Of a DNA stretch of 64,000 nt, positions 14,600 to 35,788 are shown piece by piece. Source of the stretch: a virus (lineage: Duplodnaviria; Caudoviricetes). The DNA lies in IMG/VR virus record IMGVR_UViG_3300020037_001525, positions 1 to 64,000 of that record; one strand, 5' to 3'. The position numbers were made by a program, and so were the translations under genes. Every line of letters begins with the position of its first letter. Position 1 is the stretch's first letter. The notes under the pieces were generated by a model. The model was not told the DNA's origin. It searched no databases and saw only the letters and a list, made by a program, of their open reading frames with translations.

Positions 14600-15038
14600 T
14601 GTCTTCTATTGCTAATTTTAGTAAACAAATTGCGTCTGCGACGTTATCATCATTGCCTCTGTAACCGTATTTCTTGATTGCTGTCTTTATCATCTCTTTC
14701 TTACCACAATTCCCATTGCCTGTTGCATGCTTCTTTATGGTTTTAGCATGATATCCTTTGAATGGTATATCTCTCTCAGTGCATAGCAGTTCTATTACGC
14801 CTACATACTTTGCATGTGACATTATCGCTGCTGGCATTCTGCCTGACACTGCCTCGAAGAATATCATATCTATGGACTTCTCTTCTATTTTCTTGATAAG
14901 TTCGCTCCTGAACTTCAGCAATCGCATCCCGAAATTTTCATTCCTTGTAATTTTAAACGTCCATAACCCATGTGTTCCATCAGAGCATGCCCACCCTGTA
15001 AGCTCGGCAGGGTCAATTGCTAACACATTGTATTCCAT
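14586..15038 (-). CDS. ruvC: RuvC-like Holliday junction resolvase
   Basis: VLAIDP...TGW; IFFEAV; TIKKHATGNGNCGKKEM; DDNVADAI. Confidence 0.88.
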   Translation of the reverse strand: MEYNVLAIDPAELTGWACSDGTHGLWTFKITRNENFGMRLLKFRSELIKKIEEKSIDMIFFEAVSGRMPAAIMSHAKYVGVIELLCTERDIPFKGYHAKTIKKHATGNGNCGKKEMIKTAIKKYGYRGNDDNVADAICLLKLAIEDNEIQ

Positions 15039-15648
15039 TCTTTCTTAGTTTATTATTGATTTTCCTTCTTTTGTTCGATTGTCTAATTCTGTCTTTCATC
15101 TCTTCAGTCCAAATGAGATTCTTATTCTTGTTTACCATATACTCATTGAAGTGAGCAGGCATGTTATGTGGTTTACCTTTGTTTGCTTTAGATATGCTTA
15201 GCCTTGATTGTTCTGTATGTGATATTCCCAATCTTCTATTATTACCAATTAAAGAAGCTGTTATCTTAGCTTGAATATTTTCACTCCTTGATGGTTGAAT
15301 ACCTTTATCTTTCAATGTTTGGCTTATTCTTAAAGCTATCGATGGAATAGTTGATGGATTAACACAATTATGTCCAATTGCCGCTCCTTGTATAATATTG
15401 TATCCCACATCTGGGTTGCAAGAATTGAATTTCTTTATAAACAATTTCTCCCATATATTCAACATCTTTCTTGTACTGATATCGTCTTTCAATACCTCTT
15501 TTGTAAAATTTTCTTTGCCATACTTCTTGATAGCTACTGCTAATATTGTGCCTCCACCAATGTATTTCTTAGACTTTGATGATTCTTTGCAAGACTGTCC
15601 AATGTATATCTTGCCATTGACTAAGCAAAGTGTTTTATAGATATACAT
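15013..15648 (-). CDS. free-standing GIY-YIG homing endonuclease (Seg-like) with NUMOD3-like tail
   Basis: YIYKTLCLVNGKIYIGQ...AIKKYGKENF...E...I....GYN; HTEQSRLSISKANKGK. Confidence 0.88.
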   Translation of the reverse strand: MYIYKTLCLVNGKIYIGQSCKESSKSKKYIGGGTILAVAIKKYGKENFTKEVLKDDISTRKMLNIWEKLFIKKFNSCNPDVGYNIIQGAAIGHNCVNPSTIPSIALRISQTLKDKGIQPSRSENIQAKITASLIGNNRRLGISHTEQSRLSISKANKGKPHNMPAHFNEYMVNKNKNLIWTEEMKDRIRQSNKRRKINNKLRKNGIQCVSN

Positions 15649-21985: not shown

Positions 21986-22660
21986 TTATATTTTTGCTTG
22001 TTTTAAATATTGTAATATCATGCCGCATTGTTCTCTGAATTTAGCAATTCTGTATGGTTCATAGAACAATGTCTGACTATAAGCATTAAGCACCCTTCCT
22101 ATTGTTTTATCCAATCCTACTATGCTTACTGAATATAATTCTACAAAATTCTTGTTCCCTAATGTTAGCTCATTCAACTCATATTTTATACAAGCTAACC
22201 AATCTGCCATCTTCAATATCGATTCTTCCAATTCTGTGTAATCACTTTGATTCTCACAAGAAACCATTGAATCATACAACAAATGTGCCAACAACGATGG
22301 GTTCACTGAAGTCGAACTTATGCCTGTCATTTCCTCCAACAATTTATTCTCAAAGGCAGATATCAATTTCTTGAGTTCTTCTCCATTGAACGAATTATGT
22401 TTAAGGTCATACAACACGTCTCCTGTTTTGCCTTCAAGAAAATCATGGAAAGTGCATCTATCCATTATTCTCAATGTGATGTTCAAATGGTCTACTGAAT
22501 TCTTGGTAAATAAATATTCACATATCATTCTGCCAAACGCTACGACCCACCAACTATGTTGTGACACTGTTTCACCTATCACAAATGGATGAGAATTGAA
22601 GCGAACAATGTTGTCAATTTTTCTGTGTTCTGGATTGCTTAGAAAATCAGCTATGTTCAT
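21986..22660 (-). CDS. HD-domain nucleotide hydrolase (YfbR/5'-deoxynucleotidase-like)
   Basis: IVRFN.....ETVSQHSW; FHDFLEGKTGDV; KMAD. Confidence 0.85.
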   Translation of the reverse strand: MNIADFLSNPEHRKIDNIVRFNSHPFVIGETVSQHSWWVVAFGRMICEYLFTKNSVDHLNITLRIMDRCTFHDFLEGKTGDVLYDLKHNSFNGEELKKLISAFENKLLEEMTGISSTSVNPSLLAHLLYDSMVSCENQSDYTELEESILKMADWLACIKYELNELTLGNKNFVELYSVSIVGLDKTIGRVLNAYSQTLFYEPYRIAKFREQCGMILQYLKQAKI

Positions 22661-22780: not shown

Positions 22781-24848
22781 TTATTTCGATAAATTTATGA
22801 TTTGTGTTTTGTCATACGAATATAGTGTATTACTGCCTGAATAATCCTCAAACTTTGTCTTACCTGTAATCGCTATTAACTTTCCCTTTAACTCTGGGAT
22901 GACGTCTCTAAATTCATCGAGAACATCTTCCCACAACATAACTCTTATTAAATCGCTGTTAGAAATCAACTCCATGGTGCAGTATTGAGAACCTTTCTTG
23001 GTAGTTTTCTCAATATAGAAGTTCAAAACACCGCAAATACAAACTTCTTTGTAATCTTTGCTTCTTTGAAACTCAATGTTATTGACATACATTGACTTCA
23101 AATTGTTAAGTCCTGAATTAGACAGCATTTGCTTATAGTCAACATCCCCATATCCTGTCAATTCCTTCTGTTTGAATATCCAAAAATAATCTTTGTATAT
23201 ATCTTCTGTTTGAAATTCTTCAGGGATATCCTCTTCAAATCTATCTAAGTGTTTTAAGACTAAAGATATACGTTCGCTTGGTTTGTTTATGTATTCTAAT
23301 TCATCGAAACAGCCTGACAATATCAAATTCATCAGTGTTTTCTTGTTGACATTCTTCTTAGGTATTCTGTTTGCAAAATCATTGTATGATTTAAATGGCT
23401 TTATTGTTCGTTCTGCTATTATGTGTCTAACATTAGCTTCGCCAACCCCTTTTATTTTAGTAAGAGACCAATATATGTTCTCATTATTGCACTCAAACTT
23501 ATTTGTAGATGTATTTATTGATGGTGGTTTCAATTGTATCTCCTTATGAGTCTTGCTCATCTCTGATATCCTATACATTATTTCGTCTTCAGAAGCATGC
23601 TGTAACGACGTTGTCCAAAACTCCAATGGATAATTAGCCTTAAACCACTGTGCCCAATACGCTATTATCGCATACGCTGATGCATGACTTTTATTGAATC
23701 CATAACCACCGAATGCAAGCAATTTATTCCATATCTTAATAGCATCGTGTTTATCACAACCTCTTTCCTCTGCCCCACTTATGAACTTTTGCTGATATGT
23801 AGCCATTATGTCTTTCTGGAACTTCTTCATATTTGTACGAAAACCATCAGACTCCACTAAAGTGAAACCACCTAATGTTACAACTGATTGCATGATTTGC
23901 TCTTGGTAGATTGTTAAACCATATGTGTTCTTAGTCACATCTTCTAACATATAATCATACTTCAACTTTCGTTTGCCATGCTTAATTTCTGCAAACTCTA
24001 TATGAGCATTGCTACTCATCGCTCCTGGTCGCCACAGCGCATTCATCGCTGTAAGTTCCTCTATGTTCTCTGGCTTAACTTTCGTACTGAAATTCTTCAT
24101 TCCAGATGAATTGAACTGAAATATGTCTTCATTGCAACCTCTTGCGAATAGTCTATAAGTCTTTTTGTCATCTAATCTTATATCATCAAGCACTATATCA
24201 TCACCCTTATTAACCTTTACCATATCTATTATGGACATAAACTTGTCTAATTGTGATAATCCTAATATATCTTCCTTCAGAAATCCTGCATTGTCTGTGT
24301 ACTTCCCTTCCCATTCAGCAACCAATAAACCATCTATCATTCTTACAGGCAACCAATCGTTAACATCGTATTCTTCACCGTGTTGATTCTGTTCTGGCAG
24401 AACTAATACTGCAGAAGCATGAACTGATGATGACCTTGGCTGTTCAAGACAGAACTTAATCATATTTATGATGTCAGGATATTGTTGACAAAAATTGTAC
24501 AATCCTTTGTTCTTAGTTGCATATTTGAATATATCTTCCCACTTATAGCTTACTTGATGTCCTATTGCTTTGGTTATCAAATTGCTGTATGTGAAGTCCA
24601 AATTTCTAACTTTAGCAAAGTCCTTCAACCCTGCTTTTATTTGCAATTTCGTGTATGTTCCTACTGAGCAAGTCTGAAACTCACCGAACCTTTCACGAAT
24701 GTATCCCTTCACAACGTCTCTGTATTCGCTTGGGAAATCCACATCGATATCTGGTATTTGCGCTCCCTTTATATTTCTACAAAGGGAGCAATTGAGGCAA
24801 AGAGTCCTTGCGCATCTCTTTGCTATATTCTATTTTTTTAATTTTCAT
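22781..24848 (-). CDS. dnaE: DNA polymerase III alpha, C-terminal half (predicted ATG at 24848, then a +1 skip over the 24752-24794 insert into the PDIDVDF frame)
   Basis: PDIDVDF, KEDILGL, NALWRPG, YQEQ, YGFNKSH, HhH and OB-fold motifs; the track ORF starts at GTG 24742, downstream of the catalytic PDID; no ATG in that frame back to the TAG at 24830-24832. Confidence 0.85.
24752..24794 (-). other. candidate ribosomal bypass (coding gap): stop-containing hairpin flanked by matched codons
   Basis: CCT-CAA-T[TGCTCCCTTTGTA GAAA TATAAAGGGAGCG]CAA-ATA-CCA-GAT; 13-bp stem (two G-U) with GAAA loop; in-frame TAG at 24777-24779. Confidence 0.6.
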
Positions 24849-25602
24849 TTAATATTGTTTTCTTTCTTGTCATACCTAATCTCCAACCTTCTGGTATTGG
24901 TTCCCCAATTCTTATTGCTGTATTTGTGACTCCGTTTGTTATCCTGACCTTCCCATACATTCCATTGTTTTCTCCCTTATTCAAATCGGACTCTAATAGT
25001 TTCTTGCTTAACTTTAACTTCATTTCTTCATTCCACTTATTTCCGAAGTTGGCATTCTTGTTGCCTTTTCGACTTCCATCTGAAAATTTCTTTGATAAAT
25101 GCGTCTTTTGTTCTTCACTCCAATTGTTTCCATAGTTTGGATTCTTATCTCCAATCAACTCCCTGCCTAAGATTGATAAATTCTCCTTGTATTCAGGATT
25201 ATTCTCATATCTTTCATTGATTATGGTTCTTAGCTTATTTCTAATTTCTGGTTTGCTCATTGCTTCTCTCATCCTTGGGAGCATATACTCCCTAATTCTT
25301 GGATTTTCTATTGGTGTTCCCTGACCAAAACAATTAGCAGTACCTTCAAGCAAATTATATCCTATTTCAATATTACAAGATTTGTATTTCTTTATATAAA
25401 CCATCTCAAATGCATCTAATTCTTTCTGAGTCTTGCATTCTCTCAACAATTCCTTGACGAAATTATGCAAACCGTGTTTCTTTATGGCTTTTCTTAACAG
25501 TGTACCACTTCCTATGTATTTATTTGATTTATCAAATGGATGCTTATGTTGACCAATATAAATCTTCCCATTGACTAAGCATGTTGTCTTGTATATATAC
25601 AT
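24838..25602 (-). mobile_element. GIY-YIG homing endonuclease with NUMOD3 repeats inserted within dnaE
   Basis: YIYKTTCLVNGKIYIGQH...YIGSG..L.KAIKKHG..NF; G..NP.YG..WSEE.K..LS repeats; lies between the two dnaE halves. Confidence 0.9.
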
Positions 25603-25618: not shown

Positions 25619-27268
25619 TTAATCTAAGTCAATGTCATCGTCTTCTGTGAGTTCCTCAACCAAAACTTCACCTCTTTTTGTCTTAACCTTTGTGCCGTAT
25701 TGTATTTGCTTAGTTGAACCATTAGCTAATTGCAAATTAACATATTGTATAGGCAACACCCTTGTTGCATTCAAGAACCTCTCAAAAAGCAAATCATATT
25801 CTATTGGGTCAACATTTGTGATAAATAACAAATGACAAACCAAAGAACCAGCAGCAGAACCACGACCTGTTCCAACCATAATATCATTCTGACCACACCA
25901 ATTTATTATATCCCAAAGTATTAAGAAATAATCAACAATCTCTGCGCTCTCTATCAATTCCATCTCAATCTCTACACGCTTTCTGTATAAATCAACATCA
26001 AGACCTCTTTTCTCAACTTTCTCAACAAATCCATATTCTACCAACTCTCTAAAGTACTGTATGTTGCCCTTGCCTTTTGGTGCAAAATTATACTTTGGCA
26101 GTCTTGGTATACCAACTTCGATGCTAAAGTTGCAAGAATCAACAACCTGCTTCACACTATCAAGCATAGTATTGAACAAACGATTAAAGATATGCTTGTC
26201 TTTATACATCTTGGATGCTTGTTCTTCAATTTCGCTATATGGCTTGAAGTGTTCATCCTCACTGTAAGAGGTTATACGCTTGTCAACCTTATTGAGATAT
26301 TCCTTCAACTGAAAATACTCTTTTTCTATGTAATAACTATCTTGTATCAAGATTGGTTGAATGTGGTCTGTATATTGCTTAGTATAATTTCTTATGAATT
26401 CAAGATTGCTCATGTCAACCTTATCTTCATAGAATTCAGTGTAATCAACCTGTTGGTAAATCTGAGTGAAGTGTTTCTTGTAATTATCCACTGCTTTGAC
26501 AAATCCTTTTCTATCATTCTGCAAATGGCTTAATAATCCGAATTTACAAAATACCAATATCAAACCTTCGGAATGTTCAAACAGTATCTCTTCGGTGATG
26601 AACTCACCATCAAACATGGAATTAGAATAGTTATTGATTTTCAGTAGGTTCAACCAACCTTGCTTATCCTTGACATAAAGTTTTACATCAAATTTCTTTT
26701 GTAATTTTTCTTCTGGGTTGTAATCATAAGCAACTGGGACTGTTCTTCCAAGTATTGATTTTATACCTGCATCCCTGCATTCCATTTGAATGGCCATGGT
26801 TGCTGCTAATGTATTTTTATCACATATGCCTAATGCATTCATACCTAAAAACTTAGCTTTCTTGACCCAATTCTTTGGCTTACCACTTCCATTCAATAAT
26901 TCGTATTCTGAATGTACTCCCAAGTGTATATACCTATCATTGTTCTTAATCGCACAGTTGCCGACATACTTAAAATCATTGAATTCTGCTGAATATCTAA
27001 GGTATTCTGAATCTCCTGTATACTCCTTTAGTTTGGAATAATACCACCTTTTGCCAAATTCAAACAGGAAATAGTCTATCTCATATTCTTCCAGATGCTT
27101 TTGTTCGACTGAATTGAGAGTGAAACAGCAATCCTCATCAATTATCTTGTGTTTCTTTGGGTTCAAAAGCAACAACGTGCCTAAACCTTCAACAGTGTAT
27201 AATGATTCACTTGCTTCCTCAACTATCAATAAGTTTTCTGCTATCCATGATTTTAAACTATCAGACAT
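25619..27268 (-). CDS. dnaE: DNA polymerase III alpha, N-terminal half (PHP domain to FERFLN plus a beta-rich acidic tail)
   Basis: HLGVHSEY..L.G; YFLILWDII; GTGRGSAAGSLV..LL.IT.VDP..YDLLFERFLN. Confidence 0.92.
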   Translation of the reverse strand: MSDSLKSWIAENLLIVEEASESLYTVEGLGTLLLLNPKKHKIIDEDCCFTLNSVEQKHLEEYEIDYFLFEFGKRWYYSKLKEYTGDSEYLRYSAEFNDFKYVGNCAIKNNDRYIHLGVHSEYELLNGSGKPKNWVKKAKFLGMNALGICDKNTLAATMAIQMECRDAGIKSILGRTVPVAYDYNPEEKLQKKFDVKLYVKDKQGWLNLLKINNYSNSMFDGEFITEEILFEHSEGLILVFCKFGLLSHLQNDRKGFVKAVDNYKKHFTQIYQQVDYTEFYEDKVDMSNLEFIRNYTKQYTDHIQPILIQDSYYIEKEYFQLKEYLNKVDKRITSYSEDEHFKPYSEIEEQASKMYKDKHIFNRLFNTMLDSVKQVVDSCNFSIEVGIPRLPKYNFAPKGKGNIQYFRELVEYGFVEKVEKRGLDVDLYRKRVEIEMELIESAEIVDYFLILWDIINWCGQNDIMVGTGRGSAAGSLVCHLLFITNVDPIEYDLLFERFLNATRVLPIQYVNLQLANGSTKQIQYGTKVKTKRGEVLVEELTEDDDIDLD

Positions 27269-28454
27269 ATTGATATGTGTTAGTTGCTCCTGTTCTCTTT
27301 CCGAAGAATGCTTCTGCTAACATTAGATAGTCCCATACTACATAATCAGCTGGGTTCTCCTCATGTTCATGTTCATGAGCATGCTCAAAGAATGATTCAG
27401 CCTGAATTTCTTGTATCTCATCAAGTGCTTTTCGTTTGTTTTTGTTGAGTTTATATCGAACATATACTTCAAGTATTCTATAAACATCTGATAAATACTC
27501 ACTTGATGACCAAATCATTGTTAATATTTCATCTCTTTCACTTTCATACTTCTCAGAATCTGTAAACAGCGCAGTCAAACCATTTATCATAGCATTAATC
27601 ACTAAATCAATTTGCTTCAATCTTTCTGTTGCATCTGTGCTGCTATAATTGAAATCGAACTCTCTACTCTGCATATTGGTTCCATATTCGATAGTTTTAT
27701 GCTTATCTTCAGTTGTTAGTATCTTGTTGGTCAGTTCACCCATCTTGCCTTCTGTATACATATGGAGTGACTGCGAATTATGTACCTGACTTCCTAATTG
27801 CAATCCCAATATATTCGCACACAACTCTCCCATAAATGAGAATTGGAATATATTTGTAGGCAATCCCCAATTTATATCATTGCTTCTGTTGGCAATTGTA
27901 GTGTGTAGTTTTCCGTCTCTAACTTTCCACATCCACAAATCATTGCATGGAATATCTTTGCTTGTAGTACCTAAATCTAACTCATAATTCCATATTTGTA
28001 GAACAATCCTTCTATCATTAGGATTGTTTTCTGCCATTTGCAACGCTCTTTGCATCTGGTCGAATCCCATCTTAGCTTCATTCTGAACAAAAGAACTAAT
28101 ACCTGCATTTCTGATTCTGTATCCATATGGAGCATGAAAGTTCACGCCATCATCTGAATACTCCTTCATCTGAGAATTGAATATCTGCAAGAACGCCACA
28201 TCTTTTCTACCAGCGAATATCCATAGTGCTTCAGCAAGCAAAAAGAATATGTTGATATCTCTGCTTCTTCCAGCCACACATCTTTCGTATGGATTGGATA
28301 CCTCTGTTTTGAAGTTTAGAACTTCACAAGCATCACCATTCCTTGAATTATCGTTTTTACCAAACTTATACAGTAAGTCAACCATATCAAAGTAAATTCT
28401 ATTGAAGTTATCTGATTTTGCCACACCTAAATCAAAATGTATTTCTGAAACCAT
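27261..28454 (-). CDS. thymidylate-synthase-fold enzyme (dUMP-directed; thymidylate synthase or dUMP hydroxymethylase)
   Basis: SRNG; LAEALWIFAG; YGYR; DRR; DIPCN catalytic Cys; RSNDINWGLPTNIFQF; SLHMY; likely ATG at 28454. Confidence 0.85.
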   Translation of the reverse strand: MVSEIHFDLGVAKSDNFNRIYFDMVDLLYKFGKNDNSRNGDACEVLNFKTEVSNPYERCVAGRSRDINIFFLLAEALWIFAGRKDVAFLQIFNSQMKEYSDDGVNFHAPYGYRIRNAGISSFVQNEAKMGFDQMQRALQMAENNPNDRRIVLQIWNYELDLGTTSKDIPCNDLWMWKVRDGKLHTTIANRSNDINWGLPTNIFQFSFMGELCANILGLQLGSQVHNSQSLHMYTEGKMGELTNKILTTEDKHKTIEYGTNMQSREFDFNYSSTDATERLKQIDLVINAMINGLTALFTDSEKYESERDEILTMIWSSSEYLSDVYRILEVYVRYKLNKNKRKALDEIQEIQAESFFEHAHEHEHEENPADYVVWDYLMLAEAFFGKRTGATNTYQYV

Positions 28455-35760: not shown

Positions 35761-35788
35761 GTCTTCGATAGATTTATCTATCGAAGAC
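35761..35788. repeat. perfect 13-bp inverted repeat at the structural/replication junction
   Basis: GTCTTCGATAGAT-TT-ATCTATCGAAGAC. Confidence 0.9.

Follow-up and report, generated by a model that had tools for sequence, protein, structure and literature searches.

How does a phage produce a replicative DNA polymerase when the aspartates of its active site lie in a reading frame that opens with no ordinary start codon? The question is raised by the dnaE gene carried by a stretch of 64,000 nucleotides, hereafter the window, which makes up positions 1 to 64,000 of the IMG/VR record IMGVR_UViG_3300020037_001525, an uncultured virus of the Caudoviricetes (Duplodnaviria). This gene is fractured: an open reading frame (ORF) for the N-terminal part of DnaE stands upstream of a free-standing homing endonuclease gene and the C-fragment comes after it, with 43 nucleotides, a TAG stop among them, lodged just before the codons of the catalytic Asp-Ile-Asp. 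A preliminary description of the locus, from which the N-terminal part was absent, had seen here a programmed bypass element in a replicative polymerase. The comparisons presented below support the existence of a conserved insert that must be skipped, a ribosomal hop appearing as the best-supported mechanism, while two components of the first proposal, a hop between CAA codons and a signal carried by a Lys-rich nascent peptide, found no support. All the genes of the window are on the minus strand, and the features on which the argument depends are the following.

25619-27268, minus: DnaE N-fragment ORF, 549 amino acids (Pfam PHP and DNA_pol3_alpha positions 1-99)
25622-25759, minus: C-terminal tail of the N-fragment, residues 504-549 (46 residues), cassette-borne and homologous to in-frame inserts of relatives
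24838-25602, minus: free-standing GIY-YIG / NUMOD3 homing endonuclease gene, 254 amino acids (Pfam GIY-YIG 3.6e-5, NUMOD3 2.4e-6)
ATG 24848-24846 to TAG 24779-24777, minus: 23-codon ORF, MKIKKIEYSKEMRKDSLPQLLPL
24795-24848, minus: first 18 codons of the C-fragment, MKIKKIEYSKEMRKDSLP, ending on the proposed take-off codon CCT 24797-24795
24797-24823, minus: 5' stem-loop of 8 bp, its 3' arm ending on the first base of the take-off codon
24752-24794, minus: coding gap of 43 nt, counted from the first base past CCT to the last of CCA 24754-24752, the proposed landing codon
24761-24790, minus: gap hairpin, 12 bp plus a closing U.G, with a GAAA loop at 24777-24774
22781-24751, minus: remainder of the DnaE C-fragment, 656 codons and a stop, beginning with the catalytic Asp-Ile-Asp

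The genuine DnaE sequence of the N-fragment is made of its first 503 residues, the alignment with unsplit relatives ending at residue 503-504, and only 16 nt separate its stop codon from the ATG of the nuclease gene. The end of the latter (TAA 24840-24838) is overlapped by the ATG at 24848-24846, whose frame runs into the TAG at 24779-24777, at coordinates that hold, on the minus strand, as first described. The +1 frame is open from 24829, just after TAG 24832-24830, down to 22781; it holds ...IPDIDVDF and, as had been noticed, no ATG, nor is there a GTG or TTG in it before the GTG at 24742, inside D-V-D. Beyond the gap, the remainder of the C-fragment matches DNA_pol3_alpha positions 97-260, the finger domain and HHH_6 in Pfam.

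Where, then, does the C-fragment begin? More than 100 proteins similar to it start with MK(I/V)K.(I/V)K..., 16-18 residues ahead of D-(I/V)-D, a pattern that fits MKIKKIEYSKEMRKDSLP followed by DIDVDF. The 90% cluster to which it belongs includes two unsplit polymerases of 1211 residues, P0247 and P0248, which are 90-91% identical to it in their C-part and display an uninterrupted KEMRKDSLPDIDVDFPSEYRD. At the DNA level the uninterrupted allele (L257, coding for P0247) has ...CCT GAT ATC GAT..., reading KEMRKDSLPDIDVDF, and the 43 nt are absent: relative to it, the window carries 43 extra bases (24794-24752) between the codon of Pro18 and that of the first catalytic Asp, which impose a +1 shift and contain the TAG. 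Through P0247 the D-I-D of the window aligns with D401 and D403 of the E. coli alpha subunit, the catalytic residues of that enzyme. The closest full-length relatives contain, after FERFLNxTR, an in-frame insert of ~50 residues, the first part of which matches the 46-residue tail of the window's N-fragment while the last part reads ...RKEMRKDSLPDIDVDF; because of this in-frame homology, the tail and the short ORF must be seen as coding, not as an intron. The 18 upstream codons are A-rich, as are this phage's other genes, and differ between the window and L059 by 7 synonymous changes and a single non-synonymous one. These alignments show that the C-fragment of DnaE genuinely begins with the 18 codons from ATG 24848 on. 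The preliminary description had asked for an alignment of related DnaE proteins, and this alignment shows that omission of the 43 nt restores collinearity with the 90%-identical unsplit allele: it supports the view that the insert has to be skipped to yield DSLP-DIDVDF, collinear with that allele and with the more than 100 C-fragments.

It might be thought that a gene interrupted in this way is on its way to extinction. Substitution patterns point to the contrary. For the 656 codons after the gap, the ratio of non-synonymous to synonymous substitution rates (dN/dS) is 0.031 between the window and its relative L255 (dS ~1.9), 0.097 between L255 and L059, and 0.044 between the window and the uninterrupted L257, so that the gene around the gap is, by this measure, under strong purifying selection. 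The endonuclease itself has a dN/dS of 0.076 between the window and L255, and its nucleotide identity keeps step with that of the host gene (81% and 73%). Since the endonuclease has diverged as much as dnaE, the interrupted state is old, cassette and gap having diverged together with the gene that harbours them. No second DnaE and no polymerase of family A or B was found in the 89.9-kb record, which is ~90% complete; this points to dnaE as a gene that the phage needs.

The window is not an isolated case. A gap is present at the identical codon boundary in four lineages, the window included, each time just after an orthologous endonuclease gene.

Window: gap of 43 nt (+1); proposed take-off and landing codons CCT and CCA
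L255/L256 (ENA and Logan assemblies): 42 nt (frame 0); CCT and ACA; amino acid identity to the window 85% for the endonuclease, 90% for the C-fragment
L059/L060 (Logan): 40 nt (+1); CCT and CCA; amino acid identity to the window 72% for the endonuclease, 73% for the C-fragment
L286 (Logan): 39 nt (frame 0); CCT and CCT; amino acid identity to the window 44% for the endonuclease

All four have a TAG in the upstream frame, placed five codons after the proposed take-off in three of them and one codon after CCT in L286. All four also share the same order of elements: a 5' stem-loop abutting the Pro codon, CCT, a 5-nt spacer, a stem of 11-13 bp capped by a GAAA or TAAA tetraloop, an A/U-rich spacer of 4-7 nt, and a codon that precedes GAT or GAC. 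The hairpin of L255/L256 is the same as that of the window, and that of L286 is an unrelated G+C-rich sequence. Over its first 37 nt the gap is identical in the window and L255, whereas the flanking coding DNA is just 82% identical, which would happen by chance with a probability of ~6e-4 if the sites were free to vary. Because the gaps are mixed in frame, some of +1 and others in frame, neither frameshifting nor readthrough can be the mechanism common to them all, and two uniform processes remain: either the ribosome skips the gap or the RNA loses it. Attempts to extend the series gave no further member: a 16-mer DNA pattern met only chance matches in viral contigs, a 26-mer none in metagenome contigs, and protein-based scans returned only gap-less or unsplit loci.

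Two neighbouring cases deserve mention in their own right. In L061 (948-1025), an endonuclease-bearing dnaE known from a single Logan contig, with a C-fragment 53% identical to that of the window, six extra in-frame bases, TAA CTT, stand between the Pro codon and D-I-D-M-D-F; they directly follow a different 8-bp stem-loop, with CTT codons on either side of CCG-TAA, and this arrangement looks like a miniature, stop-hop version of the device. In L063 (2420-2580), an unsplit dnaE of the RVSGER...PDVD type, ~25 nt have been lost at the same site, leaving two overlapping ORFs that need a +1 shift; a scar left by repair after endonuclease cleavage, death of the gene or a fault of assembly could each explain it.

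What has been conserved in the gap is a structure. The hairpin at 24790-24761, with its GAAA loop and the TAG at its apex, had been recognized from the start and is borne out: it comprises 13 pairs (12 and the closing U.G, with one internal G.U), has a folding energy of -19.2 kcal/mol and holds the purine run GGGAG (24767-24763) in its 3' arm. The second hairpin, of 8 bp at 24797-24823, is also real, and together the two reach -30.7 kcal/mol (z = -6.3), a stability attained by none of 200 shuffled sequences. The z-scores of the two-stem fold are -6.3, -6.2 and -5.2 for three gap sequences, against +0.66 for the uninterrupted allele. When these three sequences are compared, all 21 pairs are kept, with four compensatory and three one-sided compatible changes; with L286 added, by means of a covariance-model alignment, 10 of the 21 pairs show compensatory changes and 97.6% of the cells are paired. 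None of 500 shuffles reaches any of the pairing measures, and no slid register comes close. The gap hairpin retains its 13 pairs in the four lineages, seven of them with compensatory changes, and three of the eight pairs of the 5' stem-loop are compensatory through synonymous codon changes; this stem-loop is absent from the uninterrupted allele L257, and a different stem, of 8 bp in L061 and of 7 bp in L286, is found in its place. The selected structure must be that of the sense RNA, as the G.U pairs of both stems would be A.C on the other strand. No intrinsic terminator was found at the hairpin, which has no U-tract, and no stem-loop exceeding shuffled controls was found downstream of the landing site. 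Only one further hairpin about as strong came out of a repeat scan of the 64-kb window: a perfect inverted repeat at 35761-35788, with arms of 13 bp set 2 nt apart. Substitutions within the gap track base pairing rather than codon position, and the whole supports a view of the 43 nt that follow the Pro codon as an untranslatable, structurally conserved insert. The comparisons show that the gap exists, is conserved as an mRNA structure and is not conventionally decodable in all lineages.

How could the cell cope with such an obstacle? The reading that we prefer, and hold to be reasonably probable, is a Pro-to-Pro ribosomal hop from CCT to CCA, by analogy with T4 mobA/gene 60. dnaE would have been invaded by a mobile cassette bringing the tail of the N-fragment, the GIY-YIG gene, a new 18-codon N-terminus for the C-fragment and the structured gap of 43 nt, and the two fragments would be translated separately. 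A ribosome starting at ATG 24848 would decode 18 codons and have its peptidyl-tRNA(Pro) on CCT 24797-24795 when it meets, 5 nt downstream, the GAAA-capped hairpin. Codon-anticodon pairing would then be lost and the ribosome would slide past the hairpin and its in-frame TAG, the 5' stem-loop refolding behind it, until the tRNA re-pairs on CCA 24754-24752, decoding resuming at GAT 24751 to give ...KEMRKDSLP-DIDVDF..., as in the uninterrupted alleles. The product would contain the junction peptide DSLPDIDVDFPSEYR in a C-fragment of ~77 kDa. The hop itself is inferred, and so are the codons at which it would start and end and the parts that the two stem-loops would play in it. Both pairs of matched codons pointed out in the preliminary description, CCT 24797-24795 with CCA 24754-24752 and CAA 24794-24792 with CAA 24760-24758, are present in the window. 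The CAA-to-CAA hop, which would give DSLPQIPDIDVDF, is rejected as it is not conserved: CGA stands at the first position in L059, and the second CAA of L255 falls in another frame.

Several observations weigh against a hop of this kind. The TAG is not adjacent to the proposed take-off codon, and the codon that would fill the A site there is decodable, CAA in the window and L255, CGA in L059 and TGT in L286, being rare in L059 only (CGA, 0.17% of codons). In L255/L256 the landing position is occupied by ACA, which is not a Pro codon, so that there is no matched pair there; Herr and co-workers (2004, J Biol Chem) reportedly found that landing can make do with minimal pairing. Only 18-21 residues are made before take-off, with no sequence specific to gap-bearing loci, which makes a nascent-peptide signal of the gene 60 type unlikely; as for the Lys-rich peptide to which such a role had been ascribed, the same N-terminal pattern is found in gap-less relatives, and no more than its 18 residues exist at take-off in the window. 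This phage's genes have no Shine-Dalgarno leaders and its nearest cultured relatives infect Bacteroidota, hence a role of GGGAG in landing is doubtful; the distance from the end of the purine run to the Pro codon is 8 nt in the window, 5 nt in L059 and 6 nt in L286, and the run also belongs to the hairpin's 3' arm. What precedes GAT may simply be the native Pro codon, persisting as a relic. For the count of pairs, L286 was aligned by a fit to the model; folded independently, it gives the same two stems. Finally, ~10 related endonuclease-bearing dnaE loci have no gap (L062, L179, L181, L258-L261, L277 and L278 among them), from which it follows that the cassette does not generally require one, and that self-immunity of the cassette, an effect reported for MobA, cannot be the whole story.

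The main rival to a hop is removal of the insert from the RNA, as a mini-intron of 39-43 nt cut at the flanks of the hairpin, its ends ligated by enzymes of the host before conventional translation. Such a process would be as indifferent to the length and frame of the gap as bypassing is, and it would account for the conserved structure of the sense strand, as well as for the ACA lineage that lacks a landing codon; furthermore, RtcB is present in a Bacteroides control genome. We nevertheless consider it unlikely. The element has no match to any Rfam family or ribozyme at E up to 10 and is far too small for a group I or group II intron; no RtcB or RNA_ligase was found in the phage (the search for the T4 Rnl1 family matched no control genome, and is hence uninformative); and splicing would give no reason for keeping a Pro codon in three of the four lineages, or a stop in the upstream frame. 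We know of no bacterial or phage precedent for splicing of so small an element. Skipping by the ribosome is favoured over removal because it has a direct precedent in an endonuclease cassette, because a Pro codon has been kept before the resumption codon in three of four lineages (two with a wobble difference, one identical), as reported for cassettes of the gene 60 type, because the paired 5' stem-loop and gap hairpin match a known bypass architecture, and because bacteria and phages are not known to splice anything so small, nor was an RNA ligase found in this phage.

A second alternative supposes that the 23-residue ORF is a separate leader peptide, the C-fragment being initiated or reinitiated within the gap, at a non-canonical codon before Asp-Ile-Asp. 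The D-I-D frame does offer ATA in the window, and ATT in L255, two codons before GAT, with a purine run 4-5 nt upstream, and in L059 gene callers have taken as start a GTG of this frame, 18 codons upstream. Yet the lineages share no start-like codon: between TAG and GAT, L059 offers none, and where it has GTG the window has AGG. This phage's genes lack Shine-Dalgarno leaders, and all relatives have DnaE residues homologous to the 18 upstream codons, on which purifying selection acts, features that make internal initiation quite improbable.

It may also be asked whether the C-fragment is made at all, the gene being dead or dying, or the gap being an artefact of assembly. All the sequences are metagenomic, and contig L003 suggests that chimeras occur at this locus. 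Against this, the gap was recovered in independent JGI, ENA and Logan assemblies from four diverged lineages, the ORF of 656 codons is intact, with dN/dS values of 0.03-0.10 at saturated dS, and no alternative polymerase was found, so that we give this view very little credit. As an observation in itself, L003/L016 (IMG/VR) is identical to window positions 26026-24828 and then continues into an XRE-type helix-turn-helix gene and DNA absent from the phage record, the divergence point falling in an A-run, after the first 17 bases of the C-fragment ORF; L003 is probably an assembly chimera at that run, an alternative genomic context being less likely.

Least credible of all, and barely tenable in our judgement, is translation of the gap, with a +1 frameshift in the window and L059 and readthrough of TAG in L255 and L286 placing 13-14 residues before the catalytic aspartates. 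It is true that nothing closes the +1 frame within the gap of the window or of L059, and that the gaps of L255 and L286 are in frame save for the TAG. But sister lineages with identical hairpins (the window and L255) would need two different mechanisms, the lineages share no slippery +1 motif, TAG serves as an ordinary stop, with no suppressor tRNA, and substitutions follow pairing instead of codon position.

Other candidates were considered and rejected. Reassignment of TAG, or a suppressor tRNA, does not fit with TAG ending 13 of 52 genes nor with the sole tRNA gene of the phage record being that of tRNA-Ala (UGC), which lies outside the window at G000:C1:87308-87381, on the plus strand, whereas the window's genes are on the minus. 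A group I intron extending over the 1-kb insert has no Rfam match, the spacing before the nuclease gene is of 16 nt, and both flanks of the nuclease are coding and homologous to the protein of relatives. An intein or split intein finds no Pfam Hint match, the tail starting with V-L-P and the residue after the junction being Asp; indeed the N-fragment tail does not open with Cys or Ser, nor does the 18-residue N-terminus close on an Asn-Cys/Ser/Thr junction, and the true split-intein forms of this site, as in L022 and L038, look different. A multi-copy mobile hairpin is set aside, a single copy being present in the window.

We may now turn to the origin of the cassette. Some 20 unsplit relatives, reading ...RVSGERAKSADSMPDID, have neither the endonuclease nor either of the two tails, whereas the split loci L277 and L278 have all three; it seems natural to see the N-fragment tail, the nuclease gene and the 18-codon N-terminus as a single mobile unit. 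The locus displays the features that define genes fractured by endonucleases, namely two ORFs, cassette-borne extensions, a free-standing nuclease and unsplit relatives. The unsplit polymerases that carry the in-frame insert of ~50 residues (P0004-P0009 and P0247/8) look like products of nuclease loss followed by re-fusion. The 3' two-thirds of the window's gap resembles the native sequence located just upstream of D-I-D in the uninterrupted allele; of 2000 shuffles, one gave as good a local alignment, and L059 shows less of this resemblance. The gap could accordingly be what was left of the recipient's own copy, which would explain where the matching Pro codon comes from. As to how the fragments might be held together, the tail of the N-fragment ends with acidic residues (...EELTEDDDIDLD) and the C-fragment starts with basic ones (MKIKK...), which may form a charge-complementary zipper; the same tail shows an intein-like pattern of beta-strands, devoid of splicing residues.

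The same family of endonucleases occupies this site of dnaE in other guises. In L022, L036, L038 and L039 (~2560-4000 in L022) it resides inside a split intein, the N-half of which starts with Cys after ...ER while the C-half ends with ...IITKN before (S/C)DLPDID, the arrangement of fractured genes described by Dassa et al. (2009). In L020, L024, L025 and L027 (~2660-3980 in L027) the endonuclease is in an insert of ~1.2 kb with stop-rich flanks of 150-160 nt, at the same P|D boundary, between ...RFLNKERAELP and DIDIDL; these inserts, for which no Rfam match was found, are probably group I introns.

As to the immediate surroundings of dnaE, a gene of the thymidylate-synthase fold (27261-28454, minus) overlaps its start by 8 nt, and a gene for a YfbR-like HD 5'-deoxynucleotidase (21986-22660, minus) lies downstream, an order repeated in the gene calls of L059, L255 and L257. 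Farther away, a second ORF of 211 codons (15013-15648, minus), located between a gene for an SbcC/Rad50-like ATPase (17534-15651) and a RuvC-like gene (15038-14586), opens with 53 nt sharing 81% identity with the beginning of the dnaE endonuclease gene; Pfam gave no match for it at E up to 0.001, and it is likely to be a second free-standing endonuclease of the GIY-YIG type.

Should the hop be real, it would constitute a second natural system, non-homologous to gene 60, placed within the catalytic motif of a replicative polymerase. The nuclease, the take-off tRNA and the host phylum being different, and the nascent chain very short, it would become possible to separate the general needs of ribosome sliding from the idiosyncrasies of T4. 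The four natural variants differ in gap length (39-43 nt) and in frame, have hairpins of two unrelated sequences and include one mismatched landing codon; as a set they make up a ready-made mutational series. One may go further and ask whether we are dealing with an independent family of endonuclease-linked bypass elements working in a way unlike gene 60, a question on which our opinion is evenly balanced: take-off would be from a Pro codon 5 nt ahead of the hairpin, with no adjacent stop and no dedicated nascent-peptide signal, on ribosomes that do not rely on Shine-Dalgarno pairing, the gap deriving from a leftover copy of the target at integration of the cassette. If so, long-range hopping would be a general way for selfish nuclease cassettes to occupy catalytic motifs. 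A practical consequence concerns annotation: gene callers truncate this polymerase, which loses its catalytic aspartates, and such cassettes lead to systematic mis-annotation of phage replication genes.

It remains to place this locus among known systems, a text search of the literature having returned no report of bypassing in dnaE. Bench proof of ribosome hopping in phages comes mainly from T4 gene 60. Outside phages, hairpin inserts of 27-55 nt with matched take-off and landing codons, skipped in translation, are known as the byp elements of Magnusiomyces mitochondria, for which PMC10732093 cites Lang and co-workers (PNAS, 2014). The window likewise has a hairpin-forming insert within a coding sequence between its proposed codons for take-off and landing; unlike the byps, which are multi-copy, mobile, mitochondrial and not tied to an endonuclease, its hairpin is in single copy, at a fixed site beside an endonuclease gene.

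Fractured genes provide a second term of comparison. In phage Aeh1 nrdA is split by MobE (PMC3045599), and genes such as that of DnaE were found to be fractured by split inteins and free-standing endonucleases, with no coding gap described (Dassa et al., 2009; PMC2677866). There, as here, an enzyme of replication is broken into two ORFs by a free-standing endonuclease of the GIY-YIG, HNH or Vsr-like type. Reassembly is helped in those systems by added tails or by the halves of a split intein, and the cassette of the window has tails that parallel the MobA and MobE extensions; unlike the window, they have no untranslatable gap inside the second ORF. The terminase gene of Streptomyces phage Hau3, bypassed at a rare UUA codon with a junction peptide identified by tandem mass spectrometry (PMC10732093), is also a phage gene in which a short coding gap needs to be bypassed, but its hop is short, triggered by a hungry or stop codon, and involves neither an endonuclease cassette nor a long hairpin.

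The closest parallel, already drawn in the preliminary description and retained here, remains T4 mobA/gene 60, in which an HNH homing endonuclease accompanies a 50-nt bypass in the split large subunit of topoisomerase II; cassettes of this type were found only in the topoisomerase gene of myoviruses and called unique, their take-off and landing codons may differ at the wobble position, their loops can be of the GNRA type and some lack an adjacent stop (Manning and Atkins, bioRxiv 10.1101/2022.08.31.505936). In both systems a free-standing homing endonuclease breaks the gene of an essential enzyme at a catalytic metal-binding motif and adds tails to both fragments. In both, the second ORF is interrupted close to its start by a gap, tens of nucleotides long and containing a stop, with a tetraloop hairpin inside and a 5' stem-loop upstream. 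In both, relatives exist that are split without a gap or re-fused. Two further points of likeness are less clear-cut: the flanking codons would be readable by a single tRNA in the window, L059 and L286, yet not in L255/L256 (CCT/ACA); and where cassettes of the gene 60 type are characterized by a Shine-Dalgarno-like purine triplet 5-7 nt before the landing codon, the purine run found here a few nucleotides before the proposed landing codon doubles as an arm of the hairpin, in a phage that does not use such leaders. The differences are as telling. There is no sequence homology between the two, dnaE replaces Topo2L and GIY-YIG/NUMOD3 replaces HNH, and the likely host is of the Bacteroidota type, which makes no use of Shine-Dalgarno sequences. 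The take-off codon would be that of Pro, ahead of the hairpin by 5 nt and not within it, with a stop that is not adjacent, as had been remarked at the outset, the TAG coming five codons later in the window. At take-off the nascent chain would count 18-21 residues where that of gene 60 counts 46, no barrier stem-loop is predicted downstream, and bypassing itself is here a prediction from sequence. What we have before us would be a device of the gene 60 type in another gene, with a different nuclease and at a different site.

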